64,000 nucleotides of DNA from Leptolyngbyaceae cyanobacterium (GCA_965263355.1 CBDHHL010000056.1:32001-96000), one strand, 5' to 3'. Counted from the stretch's first letter, positions 17,454 to 52,554 are shown. Notes: a model not told the origin generated them from the sequence alone. A program made the numbers and translations.

Positions 17454-17936
17454 CTACTGCAACAAACTGCGCAACATCCACGCATTTTTCTCGTGAATCT
17501 GTAGCCGCTGGGTCAATAGATCAGCGGTGGGTTCATCATTGGCCTCATCGGCGATCGCAAATACCTCACGGGCTGTGCGGGCAACGGTTTCTTGACCTTC
17601 TACCAACAGAGCAATCATCTCTTCTGCAGTGGGGACTCCCTCAGTTTCACTAATGGAGCTGAGTTTGGCATATTCGCTATAGGTGCCAGGGGCAGGGAAC
17701 CCAAGGGCACGGATGCGCTCTGCGATCGCATCCACCGCCAGGGCCAGTTCATTGTACTGAGTTTCAAACATGAGATGCAATGTTTGGAACATTGGCCCCG
17801 TTACGTTCCAGTGAAAATTGTGAGTTTTGAGATAAAGCGTGTAGGTATCCGCCAAAGCACGGGATAAACCATCGGCAATCGCCTGCCGATGGTCGTCACT
17901 GATACCGATGTTGATAGGAAGAGTTGACGTAGACAT
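17454..17936 (-). CDS. dps: Dps family DNA starvation/stationary phase protection protein
   Basis: [51 protein letters not shown] before MSTSTL. Confidence 0.95.
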
Positions 17937-18097
17937 GACTAGTCTCCTTTTAGTAAGAGGGTGAGCCTTTTGATAAACCGCAGCGATAAACAATTTAGTG
18001 CAGCTCAGCAATTATAGATATCAGAAACTTGCCTGGCTGTATTTTATGGACACCTTAATCATACTCATAACGACTTCGACTTGCAATATTTTTTATT

Positions 18098-18168
18098 AGA
18101 CCTTGTTTACGTCCAGACCTGTTGTTTTGCCATAGAGAACATTGCAGGTTTCACCTTGGACATGGTTT
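18098..18168 (+). repeat. 71-bp dispersed repeat, copy B
   Basis: agaccttgtttacgtccagacctg...caggtttcaccttggacatggttt. Confidence 0.82.
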
Positions 18169-18188
18169 AGTTCGAGTGCAGCAAAAAC

Positions 18189-20075
18189 ATGACTGGCTAT
18201 GCCTATAGGACAGACCTAAAACTCCAACAAATTACCAACACAGTTGATCGGGGTTTGGGCTATGGTTTGAAAGTTGCTGTAGATGGGCGTATGGTTTTGG
18301 CTGATTGGCGATTGGGAGGTCATTCCCTGGGTAAACGAGCAGTACTCATTGCTTTTGGACTGTTAGCTGTCATGTCCGGTGACGCCTATGCCCAGGCACC
18401 GCTCAACCCTGACATTCAGATTGGTCTGGTGCAGCGGTTTGGTGAAGAGACGGGCGACAAACTTGTGCTTACGCCCTTGGGCGGAGACACCTTAACGGTA
18501 ACCTTTGAAACGGGGGGACAGCCCCAAGCTATTACGACCCAGGCGCTGACCCTGGAGGTGGGATCTGAGCCCCTGGACCAGCCTATTTTGCAAGAGTGGG
18601 TGGTATTGAGCAGCCACCGCAGTTTTGAAAGTGCAGAAGAGAGTGCCAATCAATGGCAAGCAAAGGGGATTGAAGCAGAGGTGGCCCAACCCAGTTCCTG
18701 GCAAGTGTGGGCTAAACGAGAAAATTACAATACGCCCCTGCTGCGCCGACTGTTGTTAGAAAGTTTGCATGAGGCCGGTCATACCAATACATTTATCGAT
18801 AGCCGTGTGCTCACCGAATCTCCTAGAGCTGCGTTTATCGCTAATGGCTATCGGTACAATCGTCATGCCTTTAGAATCACCAGTGCCAATCGTCGAGTAC
18901 ACATTGCTGAAAATGGTGGCTCTAAAAAACTGTTTGGGGGAGACTTTAAGCTCCAGCCCAATGCCTATGGCACCTACACGCTGGTAAACCAGGTACCCAT
19001 AGAAGTGTATCTGCGCGGTGTGGTGCCCCATGAGATTGGCCCCGGTGCCCCTCAATCGGCGGTTGAAGCCCAGGCTGTTTTGGCCAGAACCTATGCGCTG
19101 CGAAATCTGCGACGGTTTGCCATTGATAACTATGAACTATGTGCCGATACCCAATGCCAGGTGTATCGCGGGTTAAGCGGTGTGGTCGCTAGGGCAGATC
19201 GTGCGATCGCAGCCACCCAAAGCCAGGTACTCACCTATAACGGCGAACTGATTGATGCCCTATATTCCTCTACCACAGGCGGAATCACGGCTCGCTTTAG
19301 TGATGTATGGAACGGATTTGACCGTCCTTATCTGCAGCCAGTGGTCGATTCCCTGGCCATTACCTGGGATCTGGCCGCACGTCCCCTATCCGATGAAAAT
19401 AACTTCCGTTCCTTTATCAATTTGAAAAATCAGTTTAATGAAGACGACTGGCCTACATTTCGTTGGCAGCGGCCTGGTACCTTAGCCAATATCACCGAAG
19501 GTGTTAAGGAATACTTGACAAACCGCAAGAATCCCATGGCGAGCCTGAAAGCTGTTACGGGGCTCACGGTAACCGAGCGGTCAGACTCAGGACGAGTACA
19601 AACCGTTCTAGTCAATACGGATATTGGTGATTTTGAACTGCACAAAAACGAAGTCGTCAGTGCCTTGATCCCACCCCGCAGCCAGCTATTTTACTTAGAG
19701 CCCTGGTATGAAGAAACTGAGCAAAAAGAGAATAATGCCAGTGGTGGTAATGCCCCAGTAACCGATGCCAACAAGACCACGACCAGTCCACCAGATGCTA
19801 AACAAACGCCACCTGTACCTGTACTCAAAGGCTATACCTTTGTCGGCGGTGGCTTTGGTCATGGTGTGGGGATGAGCCAAACAGGCTCCTATCGATTGGG
19901 AGAAAGCGGTTGGCCCTACCAGCGAATTTTGCAGTTTTACTATCCCAATACCCAGTTGCTACCCATCAGTAATGACATCGTATTTTGGCAGGAGCCTGAA
20001 ACAAAATCGGCTCCGGCTGACCTAGAAATCGAGCCAGTTACTGAGGCCGAGGAGCCAGCATTTTCCTTACCATAG
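18189..20075 (+). CDS. SpoIID/LytB domain protein (true start probably downstream)
   Basis: YLRGVVPHEI, AQAVLARTYA, CADTQCQVYRG, GGGFGHGVGMSQ. Confidence 0.9.
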   Translation: MTGYAYRTDLKLQQITNTVDRGLGYGLKVAVDGRMVLADWRLGGHSLGKRAVLIAFGLLAVMSGDAYAQAPLNPDIQIGLVQRFGEETGDKLVLTPLGGDTLTVTFETGGQPQAITTQALTLEVGSEPLDQPILQEWVVLSSHRSFESAEESANQWQAKGIEAEVAQPSSWQVWAKRENYNTPLLRRLLLESLHEAGHTNTFIDSRVLTESPRAAFIANGYRYNRHAFRITSANRRVHIAENGGSKKLFGGDFKLQPNAYGTYTLVNQVPIEVYLRGVVPHEIGPGAPQSAVEAQAVLARTYALRNLRRFAIDNYELCADTQCQVYRGLSGVVARADRAIAATQSQVLTYNGELIDALYSSTTGGITARFSDVWNGFDRPYLQPVVDSLAITWDLAARPLSDENNFRSFINLKNQFNEDDWPTFRWQRPGTLANITEGVKEYLTNRKNPMASLKAVTGLTVTERSDSGRVQTVLVNTDIGDFELHKNEVVSALIPPRSQLFYLEPWYEETEQKENNASGGNAPVTDANKTTTSPPDAKQTPPVPVLKGYTFVGGGFGHGVGMSQTGSYRLGESGWPYQRILQFYYPNTQLLPISNDIVFWQEPETKSAPADLEIEPVTEAEEPAFSLP

Positions 20076-40140: not shown

Positions 40141-40623
40141 TTACCTGTCTAAATTAGATATCCAGCTATGATAACGTCCAGATATACGCACGCTCCCATT
40201 GTCTGAAAAACTAAGAACAATAGTATCAGAGGCTTCTTCAGCGTCGCTAATTTCTAGATAGCCGTCAATCCATTGGTCAAAGAAATTTGTAGCACTATGT
40301 ACACGGATGTTATAAGTCCCTTTCTTAAGTTGCATTGTTTTGCTGCGCTTAAAACCACGAGGGGAAAAGACGCGATGATCCTCAATATACACATCAGCCC
40401 ATTCGTTGCCCCGAGCAACAAGTTTCAAGGTAACTTCTTGTTCTTCGTGCTCCGCTTGGCTATCTTGTTCAGACTCAGACTGATGAGTATCTTCTTGGCT
40501 GGAAGAATAATGAATGATGGTTTCTGCGGTGGCAGAATTAGCAAAATAATTAATTAGGGATGGAGTAATGCTACTGCCGATCAGAACTGCGACCCCTAAC
40601 TTGAGCCATGGGTTTGTTGTCAT
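40141..40623 (-). CDS. Secreted hypothetical protein, PEGA-like beta domain (paralogue 1)
   Basis: Signal peptide from MTTNPWLK; GNEWADVYIE...GTYNIRV...WIDGYL. Confidence 0.7.
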   Translation of the reverse strand: MTTNPWLKLGVAVLIGSSITPSLINYFANSATAETIIHYSSSQEDTHQSESEQDSQAEHEEQEVTLKLVARGNEWADVYIEDHRVFSPRGFKRSKTMQLKKGTYNIRVHSATNFFDQWIDGYLEISDAEEASDTIVLSFSDNGSVRISGRYHSWISNLDR

Positions 40624-40658
40624 GGTGATGGGGAAGCTTGCGATCAAACACCTTGAGA

Positions 40659-41126
40659 TTAATACCCTATTGACGAGCGTTGCCCGGTCGAAATTGGGAT
40701 CCAAGCATGGGGGTCACCCGATACCCGCACACCTCGTTCGGAAAAACGGACGACAATAATATTGGTATCATTGCGACCGACATCTAAATAGCCCTCGGCC
40801 CAGACATCAAAATAATCGACACCGGTAATTTTAATTTCGTAGGCCCCTTCCCTAAAGGTGAACCGCTTACGTCGGTTGGTATTGTGGGCAGATAAAATGC
40901 GACGACCATCTACATATACGTTGGCCCATTCATTCCCCTGGGCAATAAATTCCACTGTGACTCGATTTCTAACACGTTCCCGCTCATAGATGGGATAGCG
41001 GCGGTGGTGTGGATCGGTGAGAATAATGATCTGACCGGCTTCAGCAGAGGAGACCATGGCCAGGGGAGCTGCGATCGCACCCAACAGTCCTACTATCCCT
41101 AGCCTTAGCCATTGGTGTTGTTTCAT
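40659..41126 (-). CDS. Secreted hypothetical protein, PEGA-like beta domain (paralogue 2)
   Basis: Signal peptide ending AEA; GNEWANVYVDG...GAYEIKI...WAEGYL. Confidence 0.72.
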   Translation of the reverse strand: MKQHQWLRLGIVGLLGAIAAPLAMVSSAEAGQIIILTDPHHRRYPIYERERVRNRVTVEFIAQGNEWANVYVDGRRILSAHNTNRRKRFTFREGAYEIKITGVDYFDVWAEGYLDVGRNDTNIIVVRFSERGVRVSGDPHAWIPISTGQRSSIGY

Positions 41127-41265
41127 CTTGGTTTCTATGAGCAACGTGACGTTTTTACAGGCACACCCGTCTCTATTCTAAGATTTGCCACACACATCAT
41201 CATTACCCACAAGCCAGATTCTCCAACTGGACAGGTTCGCTTCTGGAGATACGAACGAATACCTT

Positions 41266-41310
41266 AAAAGCCCCCAACCCGTCTAAGCAAGAAGAGGGGG
41301 CGGGGGCTAT
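41266..41310 (-). terminator. Intrinsic terminator after the linker gene
   Basis: agccccc / gggggct stem followed by a T run on the minus strand. Confidence 0.55.
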
Positions 41311-41354: not shown

Positions 41355-44312
41355 TTAAATAATCCCGAGAGTTTTCTGAATTAACGCCGTACCATCGATA
41401 ACTGGTTGAACCGGAATCGGATTGGCATAGGAGAGACGCTTTTCCAACCGAGGTTGACTAGAACGGGCTTGAGAGATAACGGACGTACTTTCGAGCAGGT
41501 CAAACATATTGACATACCCTACCAACCGCTGACCCGTTTGAGTTTGATATCCACGGGGATAGGGCACAGTGTCGTCACCAAAGGCCGCTTTGTATTCGTC
41601 ACTGTCAATGTAAGCGTCAATATCAGCATCGTAGCCTTGATTATCGACCATGCTACTGTGGTAAACAGCCTCTTCATAGCTTTCAGGAGCCCGGCCTAGC
41701 AGATGCTTGAAGTTAAGCTCATGGCAACGATAGCGAGGAGAACTATTGATAAAGCGAGTCTTGTACAGATCTGACTTGGCTAGAGCACGAACAAAATCGC
41801 GAACGGTCAAATCTCCATTGCGGAGCTGTGACTCAGCGGCTACCAAACGCTCGCTTTCCATCACATGGGCATTGCCTAAAACCTGCTTATAAGCCGCTCT
41901 AATCACCAATGCAACATCCTCTTCAGAGGCCCCTGGAACAAACTTGACTGGAGCAGTGTGATCTAATGTGTTGTACTGGTTCTGTAGAATTGCCGAACGC
42001 TCAAACCTGGATAGAGCACTAGTTGCATCTAAGCTAAACGAATAGTCTGGAGTGACCGTGGGAATTTCAGGTTTAGCCGTTGGTCTTCCAACGGCTGGCA
42101 CAGTGGCTGGCACAGTGGCCTCAGAAATTTCGGGAATGTTGCTGGACCGATTGCTCAGTAGAGACTGTTCTAAGGCGGCACCACCATGCTGGCTAAAGGG
42201 TTTATCGCTGCTAGAGGCTCCGCGCAATAACTGGAAGGAGTGAGTATAGCTGGCTATGCGCTTGCCTGTTTGCGTTTGATAGCCCCGGAAGTAGGGAACG
42301 ATGTTAGCGCCAAAGGCTTGGAAATATTCATCGCTATCTAGATAGGTATCAATGTCAGCGTAGAACCCTTGCTCAGCCAAAATTTGAATATGATGAGAGA
42401 TTTCTGCAGCATTCTCAGGCGCACGCCCTAGCAAATGCTTGAAGTTTAATTCAACTGTTTTTAGGTTGGTGCATCCCTCGTAGAACAAATCGCGATATCT
42501 GTCTGACTTCGCCAGGGCCCGAACAAATTCAAGGACGGTAATATCACCATTACGTAACTGTGATTCAGCCATGGGAAACCGCTCGCTTTCCATCAGATGG
42601 GCATTGCCAAACACCTGTTTATAGGCGGCTTCAATGACTAAATCGATTTGGGTTGTACTGTCACCAACCACTCGTTCAATGGGGTGTTGCTCAGCAAATG
42701 AGTCAGTGTAGGGGGCAACGATAGACGGCGAGCCAACATCCTGTTTAGAAACAAAGATCTCAGTGCCAATGGCTTGGGCTAACTGGAACCCCTTAGGATT
42801 GAAAACGTTTTCCTGCTTGGATTGGAAGTTTTTAGCTAGGGCTGTTTGTAGTTGCGATCGCTGGCTGGTTTGAATTGAGTCAGCAACGGTGCGATCGCTA
42901 CTGGATAATCCTTTAACCAATTCAAAGATACGGTTATAGCCAGCGACATTCTTACCCGTTTGAGTGGCGTAACTCACATAGTAGGGAACTGTGTCAGTGC
43001 CGAAGTTCTCATCATATTCTGGGGTGTCGAAGTAAGAATTAATTTCGGCCTCTAAACCGCCCTCAGCCAAAATGGCAAGATGTTTAGATACTTCCTTAAA
43101 GTCATCAGGGGCCCGACCCAGTAGGTGCTTAAAGTTCAATTCAATGGCCCGGACATTGGAACAACTCTCAAAGAACAGTGCCCGATACGCATCCGACTTA
43201 GCCAGGTTCCGGACAAACTCCTTGACGGTTAACGCACCATCTTTAAACTGGGACTCAGCCGTTAGCAGGCGCTGACTTTCCATCAGGTGGACATTACCAA
43301 ACACCTGTTTATAGGCCGTCCGAATAATTATCTCCTTGTCTTCATTGGAAGCCCCTGGGTAGAGCTTCACTGGCTGGCTGGCACGAGCAGCCGGAAAGGT
43401 CGCTGCTGCCTGCTTGGCGTTGTACTGCTGGACCCACTCGCTGGGAGTAACCGGTGCTGCCAAAAATGCAGCTGACTTGTAAAAGGGAATGTAATCTTCC
43501 TTGGTCAGCTGTTTTTCAGGCTGCTTGTATTCCTGGGGAGGAATAACTGGTGTTGGCACTGGTAAGGTTATCAACGGCTTAATCTCCGTGGGAGTGCCGC
43601 CTAACAGACCTGTTTGAATTTGAGGAGTGGTATTACTCTCAATGGATTTATCGCTACTGGGTGCCCCTTTCACCAGCTGGGATGAATGGGTAAATCCAGA
43701 CACCGATTTACCGGTCTGGGTGAGATGTCCACGATAGTAAGGCACCAAGTCTGTTCCAAATGCCTGGAAATATTCGTCACTATCTAGGTAAGAATCAATC
43801 TCAGCTTCAAACCCACCCTCGGCCAAAATCTGAATATGCTCAGAAATTTCGGCATGATTGTCAGGCGCACGCCCCAGCAAATGCTTAAAGTTTAATTCGA
43901 CCGTTCTGATGTTCGGGCAGTTTTCGAAAAATACGGCGCGGTAGCGGTCAGACTTAGCCAACCGACGCACAAACTCTAGTACGGTAATCTCGCCTCTGCG
44001 TAACTGAGATTCTGCGATCGCAGAGCGCTCACTTTCCATCAGATGGGCATTGCCAAACACCTGTTTGTATGCGGCCCGAATCACCACATCTAAATCAGTG
44101 ACTGAGTTAGTTCCGATCAGCTCTACAGGTTCACTAAAGGCATTGGCATAATTTTTCTGAACATCAAATTCGGCTTTTACGATGACCTCTGCTTGAGCCG
44201 TCTCAGCCACTTTTCTCTGTTCTAAAGCAGTCGCTAAATCAAAGCCTTCAGGATTAAATTGCTTTCTGTTAGCCTTGATTGCTGCAGGGCGAAACAACGT
44301 GTTGTTAATCAT
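41355..44312 (-). CDS. Phycobilisome rod-type linker with four tandem PBS_linker (PF00427-like) domains
   Basis: Four copies of AYKQVxGNxHxMESxR...ELNFKHLLGRAP...EY...FGxxxVPY; no N-terminal bilin domain. Confidence 0.93.
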   Translation of the reverse strand: MINNTLFRPAAIKANRKQFNPEGFDLATALEQRKVAETAQAEVIVKAEFDVQKNYANAFSEPVELIGTNSVTDLDVVIRAAYKQVFGNAHLMESERSAIAESQLRRGEITVLEFVRRLAKSDRYRAVFFENCPNIRTVELNFKHLLGRAPDNHAEISEHIQILAEGGFEAEIDSYLDSDEYFQAFGTDLVPYYRGHLTQTGKSVSGFTHSSQLVKGAPSSDKSIESNTTPQIQTGLLGGTPTEIKPLITLPVPTPVIPPQEYKQPEKQLTKEDYIPFYKSAAFLAAPVTPSEWVQQYNAKQAAATFPAARASQPVKLYPGASNEDKEIIIRTAYKQVFGNVHLMESQRLLTAESQFKDGALTVKEFVRNLAKSDAYRALFFESCSNVRAIELNFKHLLGRAPDDFKEVSKHLAILAEGGLEAEINSYFDTPEYDENFGTDTVPYYVSYATQTGKNVAGYNRIFELVKGLSSSDRTVADSIQTSQRSQLQTALAKNFQSKQENVFNPKGFQLAQAIGTEIFVSKQDVGSPSIVAPYTDSFAEQHPIERVVGDSTTQIDLVIEAAYKQVFGNAHLMESERFPMAESQLRNGDITVLEFVRALAKSDRYRDLFYEGCTNLKTVELNFKHLLGRAPENAAEISHHIQILAEQGFYADIDTYLDSDEYFQAFGANIVPYFRGYQTQTGKRIASYTHSFQLLRGASSSDKPFSQHGGAALEQSLLSNRSSNIPEISEATVPATVPAVGRPTAKPEIPTVTPDYSFSLDATSALSRFERSAILQNQYNTLDHTAPVKFVPGASEEDVALVIRAAYKQVLGNAHVMESERLVAAESQLRNGDLTVRDFVRALAKSDLYKTRFINSSPRYRCHELNFKHLLGRAPESYEEAVYHSSMVDNQGYDADIDAYIDSDEYKAAFGDDTVPYPRGYQTQTGQRLVGYVNMFDLLESTSVISQARSSQPRLEKRLSYANPIPVQPVIDGTALIQKTLGII

Positions 44313-44570: not shown

Positions 44571-44714
44571 AGCTGAGTTTAATTTATGCCAGATTTTCTG
44601 GATCTGTTTAACCTTCCATAGCAGCAGTTGCTAGATGTTCCGCTGATTTCAACCTGGCCCCTAAGCGCCATGGCCATACAATACTAACTATGGCCCGCTA
44701 CTCCTAATTTCCCG

Positions 44715-51008: not shown

Positions 51009-51576
51009 AAGTATTAGTCCTATGAACGTTCCAATATTGCCAAGGGCGTTTGTCGTGTAATTGGCGAGATATTGGCTCTGCCACCAGGCAGTGGGTAGAG
51101 CCTGAGAGGACGTACGAGCCTAAGAAAATGTTCACTTTACAATTTTTATGCGAGAGAAGAAGAAACTAATCCTCGTGTTTTAGTCCCATTTGTTAAACTC
51201 CTACCAACCTACGGTGCCCTTTCACTCCATGGCCACCGTACTTCATAATGCTCTATCCTACAGCATCCTAAAACTTAAGAAAAGCATCTTTATAATAATT
51301 GCCATTAGTTACACTACCACACTGCAGATAAATTTCTTTTTATATGCTAAATCCATATTTCCCCATACTGTAAGTGACCCAAAAAATCATCAATAGCGTG
51401 TCAAATCGGGATGTTCAGATGGCAATTTCTTGCACCAATTTTCAATTATCTTTATTGATTTTTTAATATTATCTTTTAGCCATTTTCTAATCAGGCTCAA
51501 TGACTCTTCTTTTGGGTAGTTATGGGGTAACTAAAACCACAGTAAATCAGAAAAAATTTGGCATACGTTTCAAAAA

Positions 51577-52120
51577 ACGGCCCAGGAGTTAAGGCGAAAA
51601 AGAAGACCAAGAAACGCAGGAAGTCGAGTTCATCAGAGTCTTCTCCTCGCCAAGTCCGTACGCTCAAGCCGAGTGAAGAGTGTGAGCGCAGTTATGACGT
51701 GAAGCCAACAGTGTGCAAGGACTGTGGAGCGGAGTTGAGTGGAGATGATCGCTATCCACATCGGCATCAAGAGATAGAGTTGCCCCGGATTGAACCGTTG
51801 GTGATTGAATACCGTCTCCATCAGCTGAGTTGTTCGGTCTTTGGAGAGATGACCCGAGCGAGGTTACCGTTAGGGGTGTCCCCTTCCGCATATAGAGAGC
51901 GTTTGAGTGCCATCGTGAGTCTGTTGAGTGGACCGTATCGTCAAAGCTATCGTCAGGTTTGTCGATGGATGGATGAGGTGTTTGAGGTGCGATTGTCCCG
52001 TGGCAGTATTGGTCGTTTGCGCGAAGAGCTGAGTACGGCTCTCGAAGCTCCCGTGTCAGAGGCAAAAACATATGTTCAGTCTCAACCGAGGGTCCATAGT
52101 GATGAGACGGGATTTCCCCG
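51577..52120 (+). mobile_element. IS66-family transposase, internal N-terminal fragment
   Basis: Basic patch, CxxCG zinc finger, EYRLHQLSC; ends at VHSDETGF. Confidence 0.85.
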
Positions 52121-52554
52121 TAGTCACAGCAGGTGAGTTTTGCTTCCAGTTGACTTACCCAGCTATCCCCAACGTTGGACACAGTATCCAAATTTGCTAG
52201 AAAGGGATCCCCAGCCCTCTGAACAGACTGGCCTAAGGTTTTGGCTATCTGAGCATCAGGATTTTGCTCTCGATAGATAATGGCAATCTGCTTTTTCCGG
52301 TTTATGGCCCTTTCTAGTGGGCCTCTTATATCCCGTTTGCCAAAGTCTTCGTACGACGCTTTGGAAAAAAAATTCCAAAGCTTAAAACCGACATTCTTTT
52401 CGATATGCTCTGGTTTAAAGGGATAAATTTCCCGATAGGTCCGACCTTCCCAAGATCCTATAAAAACCTTACGTTCCAGATCATTAAGATGTTTTCCAGT
52501 TTTAGTGTAGACCAACTGGTCAACAAACTCTAACGCTGCATCTGCATCCATCAT
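52121..52554 (-). pseudogene. Truncated N-terminus of a cyanobacterial HTH + TIR-like signalling/ATPase protein
   Basis: ALEFVDQLVY..GKHLNDLER..GSWEGRTY..KLW HTH then IAIIYR..PDAQIA..GDSW; reading continues into antisense IS66. Confidence 0.65.

Follow-up and report, generated by a model that had tools for sequence, protein, structure and literature searches.

The gene and its four-domain product

The window analysed here is a 64,000-nucleotide stretch of DNA from a Leptolyngbyaceae cyanobacterium (GCA_965263355.1 CBDHHL010000056.1:32001-96000), and it carries an open reading frame (ORF) for a phycobilisome linker with four PF00427 domains (D1 to D4; Table 1). The protein belongs to a real, conserved and so far unnamed family in marine, red-pigmented, thylakoid-bearing cyanobacteria. 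Pfam placed PF00427 on four stretches of it (E 4.6e-198), and neither PF00502 nor PF01383 matched at E<=0.1. An earlier note on this DNA had described four linker domains with rod-linker-type tails, motifs near 44050, 43290, 42605 and 41870, no bilin domain and no obvious CpcD-like C-terminus. In agreement with this description, the YKQV..MES motif sites were computed at 44028-44069, 43272-43313, 42582-42623 and 41850-41891, and a PY..G/TQTG tail follows every one of the four domains.

In canonical rod linkers, a CpcD domain plugs into the next disc. A profile built from the CpcD-like domains of related loci detected no remnant of this domain in any of the 53 aligned family members. Likewise, HHalign against a CpcD-like profile gave less than 1% for the N-terminus, each spacer and the tail, with an MpeD-like tail as control scoring 99.7%. 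The NCBIfam CpcG2 score of 422 (cut-off 420) is the sum of four partial matches.

The spacers between the domains are 130, 108 and 122 residues long. An AlphaFold2 model, based on a 53-sequence alignment, showed four confident helical domains joined by spacers with a predicted local distance difference test (pLDDT) score below 50, and its predicted template modelling (pTM) score was 0.28; the model therefore gives no fixed domain arrangement. The flexibility that the earlier note ascribed to the spacers is thus borne out, whereas the Pro-rich part it mentioned is found only in spacers 1 and 3 (9 of 38 and 7 of 49 residues, versus 4 of 56 in spacer 2). Foldseek matched only known linkers, with low whole-chain TM-scores.

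Outside the domains, the segments conserved in the family are the N-terminal arm (invariant residues L6, F7, F19, N20, P21, F24 and D25), its copy before D3, the Trp arm before D2 and the C-terminal helix. The N-terminus aligns with spacer 2 at an HHalign probability of 98%, and two copies of the FNPxGFxLA arm are present in 37 of 53 members. Moreover, D3 (42586-42620) and D1 (44032-44066) have a 35-bp exact repeat in common. The second arm marks a duplication within the protein, in which the arm was copied together with a type A domain. The C-terminal ending is also seen in single-domain type A paralogs. A chromophorylated linker was ruled out, as no cysteine precedes residue 132 and the conserved C132 (D1; 51 of 52 members) and C384 (D2; 49 of 53) both sit inside domains; any cysteine within residues 1-60 occurs in 10 of 53 members.

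Table 1. Features of the linker gene and its product, in window coordinates (domain types A to C as in the trees described below).
Feature	Position	Strand	Remark
Four-PF00427 linker ORF	41355..44312	-	985 aa, 109.6 kDa, ATG start, domain order A-B-A-C
N-terminal arm, residues 1-31, FNPxGFxLA motif	44220..44312	-	conserved, invariant columns; candidate docking element
Linker domain D1, type A, residues 72-193	43734..44099	-	
Arm before D2, residues 279-315, invariant W293, F306, P314	43368..43478	-	from conservation
Linker domain D2, type B (sister of type A), residues 324-445	42978..43343	-	from tree
Second FNPxGFxLA arm, before D3, residues 503-515	42768..42806	-	from HHalign
Linker domain D3, type A, residues 554-675	42288..42653	-	70% identity to D1
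Linker domain D4, type C, residues 798-919	41556..41921	-	from tree
C-terminal helix segment, residues 965-985	41358..41420	-	place of CpcD domain in canonical rod linkers
GC-rich hairpin then UUU, possible intrinsic terminator	41269..41308	-	not above chance

The gene is stand-alone in the window, as the earlier note had it. Its upstream neighbour is divergent, and no phycobilisome gene was found among the 36 Pfam-scanned of the 45 other window ORFs of at least 150 aa, the remaining nine being only listed or inspected by eye. The terminator is weaker than the note had claimed: the hairpin has a z of -1.56, 12 of 200 shuffles fold as well and the consensus terminator scan does not list it, hence its support is weak. 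Directly downstream, at 40141-41144, is a pair of small paralogous ORFs whose N-termini are hydrophobic and which Pfam does not match; relatives keep them at the same site. At the intergenic position 44706, both closely matching sequencing runs have one extra G, a possible single-base error in the window. An ORF at 51558-52136, transposase-fragment-like by eye, overlaps a 296-aa ORF.

Spread of the family and its association with phycoerythrin genes

Among the best 120 of 439 matches in a protein search, 59 have the FNPxxFx[LW] arm, comprising 41 four-domain (query included), 15 three-domain and 3 two-domain proteins, some of the three- and two-domain members being partial. Carriers include Leptothoe kymatousa, L. 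spongobia, Adonisia turfae, Leptolyngbya sp. Heron Island J and PCC 7375, together with three Okeania assemblies, [Leptolyngbya] sp. PCC 7376 and marine assemblies. Orthologs of the named carriers are 51-85% identical to the query over their full length, and family members have only generic database names. An assembly artefact, which the earlier note had considered, is ruled out by four-domain orthologs on long contigs. In run X1, which may be from the window's source sample, the ORF is covered at even depth by three contigs free of mismatches; the only breaks between them fall at the 35-bp repeat of D1 and D3, which no single piece spans.

The domain number among relatives ranges from one to seven. 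A one-domain relative with the same arms was found (P0240), and of seven longer relatives (1805-2015 aa) six have seven domains and one has six; two of these are complete ORFs in metagenome loci (L091, L110). These giants (L091:3433-9480, L110:3448-9477; P0291-P0297), of about 2010 aa when they have seven domains and 1805 aa in the one with six, contain A/B modules as in the four-domain linker, and their C-terminal tail is the coiled-coil-like one of the linkers with two or three domains. In a sample across the phylum, with at most two candidates scored per genome, none of 400 other genomes gave a match at E<=1e-100, a loose indication that the family is rare. Titles, abstracts and main-text passages of a largely open-access literature (PMC13436157 and PMC13623022 among it) contained no description of it.

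Within the order to which A. turfae belongs, we examined 172 genomes, with at most four candidates scored per genome, so that members may be missed. Twenty were carriers (15 complete four-domain, two three-domain and three cut by contig ends), and phycoerythrin genes occur in all 20: CpeB in 14, a PebA match in five and, in the last, the cpe cluster itself, inside which the linker gene lies (L168). The five PebA matches are 72-94% identical, one spanning only 70 residues at a contig end. CpeB was thus present in 14 of 20 carriers versus 53 of 152 non-carriers (67 of 172 overall; Fisher p=0.003, with no kinship correction).

Within the cpe linker operon, where the linker gene lies in five of the 20 carriers, the order is cpeC, cpeD, four-domain linker gene, cpeE, cpeE, cpeS, cpeT, cpeR (cpeD uncalled in one); in three more carriers the gene adjoins cpe genes. 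The remainder have it at the window's stand-alone site (six), beside other neighbours (four, one abutting cpcF) or on short contigs (two). The stand-alone position is not the usual context in the family. Since the cpe-cluster location is found in carriers of at least two lineages, the gene probably reached the site seen in the window by moving there later. The CpeB and CpeY labels are NCBIfam matches (CpeY score 596, cut-off 600). For cpeC/D/E/S/T/R, pebA and PEII-like, the labels are putative, assigned from domain content and the cpeCDESTR order, and for CpeC from gene order and sequence, database names being generic. That gene order is cited in a passage of PMC5737509. From relatives with orthologs 76-85% identical, we infer that the window's organism probably also has phycoerythrin.

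The carriers inventoried (four plus five) keep many other linkers; those examined closely include CpeC/D/E-like single-domain linkers, CpcC, CpcG and a three-repeat ApcE. Carriers keep the full standard linker set, and the four-domain linker gene is therefore an addition to that set.

Further observations were made in these loci. One cpe cluster contains two small stand-alone CpcD-like (PF01383) genes (L039:16813-17055 and 17875-18237). A second phycoerythrin operon in Leptolyngbyaceae-type genomes (L044:11632-12858, L164, L089, L090), about 68% identical to CpeB/CpeA and presumably PEII-like, adjoins a member of the four-domain-linker family in three loci. A phycocyanin cluster (L047:2892-19718, L048:1903-16832) includes a sensor kinase and response regulators, which we take to be Rca-like, as well as linkers and second copies of cpcBA and of a three-repeat apcE. 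This content suggests that the core linker is exchanged in response to light. Heron Island J acclimates chromatically (PMC3916487).

Ancestry of the domains and comparison with known linkers

Domain ancestry was analysed in a quick tree of 126 domains (25 of 151 extracted were dropped for speed) and a mixture-model tree of 60 domains, which were concordant on domain placement. D1 and D3 are of one type and D2 is of its sister type. D4 is of a different type, which rules out the domain order A-B-A-B; it falls together with the CpeC-like linker and with the domains that come last in two- and three-domain linkers of phycoerythrin clusters. All four domains fall within a 25-row clade (97/98) that includes the CpeC-like linker; outside it are the CpcC, CpeD/E-like, MpeD-like, CpcG, ApcE and Gloeobacterales domains. 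CpcN, Glr2806 and the Gloeobacter kilaueensis ortholog that represents Glr1262 (P0117) form their own Gloeobacterales clade (100/96). As the family's domains are not monophyletic (approximately unbiased (AU) test, p=0.016), the AU test was done per domain group, and it rejected union with Gloeobacterales for both the D1-D3 group (p=0.006) and the D4 group (p=1.6e-5). Domain identities are 47-54% to the CpeC-like linker, 39-50% to Gloeobacterales repeats, 30-37% to ApcE repeats and 23-33% to CpcG-like domains. Judged from these comparisons, the family arose independently of Glr1262, Glr2806 and CpcN, and its likely hexamer partner would be phycoerythrin.

An origin from ApcE, giving an allophycocyanin-binding core or core-core linker (ApcH-like), would fit the four repeats, as in pentacylindrical ApcE, and the AU test does not reject union with ApcE repeats, which lie on long branches (p=0.32 and 0.058). 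We consider it highly improbable: identity to ApcE repeats is well below that to the CpeC-like linker, the tails are of the rod type (TQTG), ApcE lies outside a 98/98 branch, and none of the examined loci has the linker gene next to an apc gene. By anatomy, too, the protein is not ApcE, as the earlier note had stated. The two are alike in having several PF00427 repeats in one large chain, whereas ApcE has a phycobiliprotein domain and the query has its first linker domain from residue 72, and the carriers have a separate ApcE of their own. The placement of the domains outside ApcE holds in the best trees, with union with ApcE left unrejected by the AU test.

The likeness to Gloeobacterales linkers drawn in the earlier note is one of anatomy, namely at least three PF00427 domains without PF01383 or PF00502, and not of common ancestry. 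CpcN of Anthocerotibacter panamensis (a chain-core linker, PDB 8IMN), with its tandem PF00427 domains and no CpcD, is the top PDB sequence match (E 8e-208; 39-47% identity per domain). However, it belongs to a separate clade, has its own N-terminal docking motifs, binds phycocyanin and works in a thylakoid-less cell. The length of the CpcN chain varies, as there are CpcN-like proteins with five to seven domains (P0047, P0061-P0064, P0069). The Gloeobacter rod-core linkers Glr1262 and Glr2806 (PDB 9K9W, 9V7G-L) similarly have several rod-type PF00427 domains on loops and no CpcD, yet these are three near-identical repeats with core-docking helices replacing CpcG, in contrast to the four divergent domains of the family, its lack of the docking motif, its retained CpcG and its independent origin.

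The family's thylakoid-bearing lineage was correctly given in the earlier note. Multi-domain rod linkers, which it had placed mainly in Gloeobacterales, are not confined there, for passages of PMC2246261 describe MpeD, a two-domain phycoerythrin linker of thylakoid-bearing marine Synechococcus. MpeD, a PEII-type domain fused to a CpeD-like linker, differs in clade, the MpeD-like proteins compared end in a CpcD domain, and most MpeD have N-terminal phycourobilin (PUB)-binding cysteines, unlike the query. CpeC is the nearest named relative by tree, and shares the operon in five genomes; it has one PF00427 plus PF01383 and is retained beside the four-domain gene. CpcG, with a single type I PF00427 and a C-terminal docking helix, does not fit the four-domain linker.

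Other multi-domain linkers were encountered. A second set of CpeC-related two-, three- and four-domain linkers without CpcD (L040:3032-5380, L044:14543-16882, P0055, P0071, P0076) has a duplicated helical tail, with the three-domain form near cpeBA in the same genomes. True one-chain coaxial rods could be formed by fused four-domain CpeE-CpeE-CpeC-CpeC linkers ending in CpcD (P0075, P0077, P0078, P0081, the first of which is included in the tree) and by P0066, which has five domains and CpcD.

Attachment and proposed role

In established structures, the PF00427 domain occupies the hexamer cavity, and multi-domain linkers without CpcD form unstacked chains (CpcN) or hold hexamers side by side (Glr1262, Glr2806), as described in passages of PMC10696076, PMC12525769 and PMC12216592. 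Extra phycoerythrin hexamers are likewise described for red algal antennas in part of PMC10682464. By analogy with the CpcN chains, the Glr2806 side hexamers and these red algal hexamers, the four-domain linker may be a lateral or staggered scaffold for four extra phycoerythrin hexamers, giving a phycobilisome shape undescribed in thylakoid-bearing cyanobacteria, a reading in which our belief and doubt are about equal. Each of the four domains would be seated in the cavity of one phycoerythrin hexamer, and the four hexamers would form additional discs at the edge of the antenna, held in a lateral or staggered arrangement. The conserved arms, as presumed docking elements for neighbouring phycobiliprotein surfaces, would dock on the outer surface of adjacent rods. 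The discs may be capped by free CpcD-like proteins, much as CpcN discs are by CpcD (PMC10696076), although such proteins are not family-specific, and obligate capping by those of the cpe cluster was ruled out by their partial co-occurrence. CpcG, CpcC and CpeC/D/E would still build ordinary rods, the scaffold adding discs and replacing none.

Several points weigh against this proposal. Most carriers are close kin, and their co-occurrence with phycoerythrin does not amount to 20 independent events. Neighbouring cpe genes are missing, or would lie beyond the end of a short contig, in 12 of the 20 carriers; they are missing in the window as well. Free CpcD-like genes occur in the cpe cluster of only 13 of the 20 carriers and also of 25 of the 152 non-carriers. 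A sister relation of ApcE to either domain group survives the AU test. The docking pattern described below was written post hoc from reference sequences. It is conceivable that the FNPxGFxLA arm is a core-docking helix that has diverged. Spacer length does not discriminate between lateral and coaxial arrangements: spacers of 99-111 residues in CpcN and 105-107 in Glr2806 are close to those of the four-domain linker, and a 118-aa MpeD-like spacer is also without a CpcD remnant. MpeD, furthermore, is modelled inside a coaxial rod in passages of PMC2246261.

The two MpeD observations speak for a fused coaxial rod linker, an extended MpeD with one chain running through four stacked phycoerythrin hexamers of an ordinary hemidiscoidal phycobilisome. 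Its two-domain precedent has been suggested to lengthen the rod by a disc (PMC2246261), the linker gene is flanked in several genomes by a cpeD-like and a cpeE-like rod-linker gene, and a separate four-domain CpeE/CpeC fusion with terminal CpcD does exist (P0075). We nevertheless regard this arrangement as unlikely, because the CpcD plug at the end of P0075 and of the MpeD-like proteins is missing in the family, the domains do not group with MpeD-like or CpeD/CpeE-like rows, seven-domain relatives would require very long rods, and the long conserved N-terminal arm is left with no role.

Passages of PMC12216592 describe docking of rod-core linkers on the core via short helices with a conserved Phe or Trp. 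A core-docking pattern, equated with these helices by inference, is present in all six Gloeobacterales proteins (CpcN, two CpcN-like, both Glr2806 proteins and the Glr1262 ortholog) and in two of four CpcG-like proteins, the other two having hydrophobic, CpcL-like tails; it is absent from all 53 family members. The tie between four hexamers that the earlier note suggested is plausible; given the missing motif, bundling of rods onto the core appears less likely than tethering of extra discs. A convergent Glr1262-like bundler, its domains forming the bases of four rods and its FNPxGFxLA arms lying on the allophycocyanin core, would account for two conserved aromatic-led arms at the positions of the Glr1262/CpcN docking helices, and at 125-147 aa the family's spacer 1 comes near the 139-141 aa of the Glr1262 ortholog. 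Apart from the motif, the carriers keep CpcG, which Gloeobacter lacks (PMC12525769, in part), and ancestry and gene context are linked to phycoerythrin, whereas in described architectures phycocyanin adjoins the core; such a bundler seems distinctly improbable. When a complex of CpeA and CpeB with the N-terminal arm was predicted, using residues 1-45 from L. kymatousa, the median was 0.18 and the mark 0.32.

Long flexible spacers with no fixed domain arrangement, the absence of known attachment devices and a domain number of one to seven would also suit a cross-linker of neighbouring phycobilisomes into arrays, or a core-free phycoerythrin pool serving as a pigment or nitrogen store or a light screen. 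The rod-linker operon position in five genomes suggests co-expression with normal rod parts instead, and we rate the chances of arrays or a pool as slim.

Returning to the lateral scaffold, what is new is a phycoerythrin-type linker with several domains that evolved independently in marine cyanobacteria with thylakoids and has a presumed tethering function. Westermann et al. reportedly described hemiellipsoidal phycobilisomes in a Phormidium in 1993. For PCC 7376 or Phormidium persicinum, our literature search did not confirm such phycobilisomes. According to part of PMC4553884, hemi-ellipsoidal phycobilisomes occur only in red algae; a passage of PMC9916406 nevertheless cites Westermann et al. 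Tentatively, and with somewhat more doubt than confidence, we suggest that marine benthic phycoerythrin-rich cyanobacteria may build an oversized, so far undescribed phycobilisome, red-alga-like in bulk, using an independent CpeC-derived kit of one- to seven-domain scaffolds with new docking arms, of which the window holds a four-disc member. The kit may explain the Phormidium report, a link that is conjecture.

Modular scaffolds of one to seven domains may find use in antenna engineering. As linkers set phycobilisome shape, a new architecture can be sought directly by cryo-EM in the cultured carriers (Heron Island J, PCC 7375, PCC 7376 and Adonisia turfae). In the passages of PMC10696076, PMC12525769 and PMC12216592, multi-disc tethering by scaffold linkers is described only for thylakoid-less cyanobacteria (CpcN, Glr1262 and Glr2806). 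A second, independent origin in thylakoid-bearing marine cyanobacteria would mean that the design is not tied to the absence of thylakoids.

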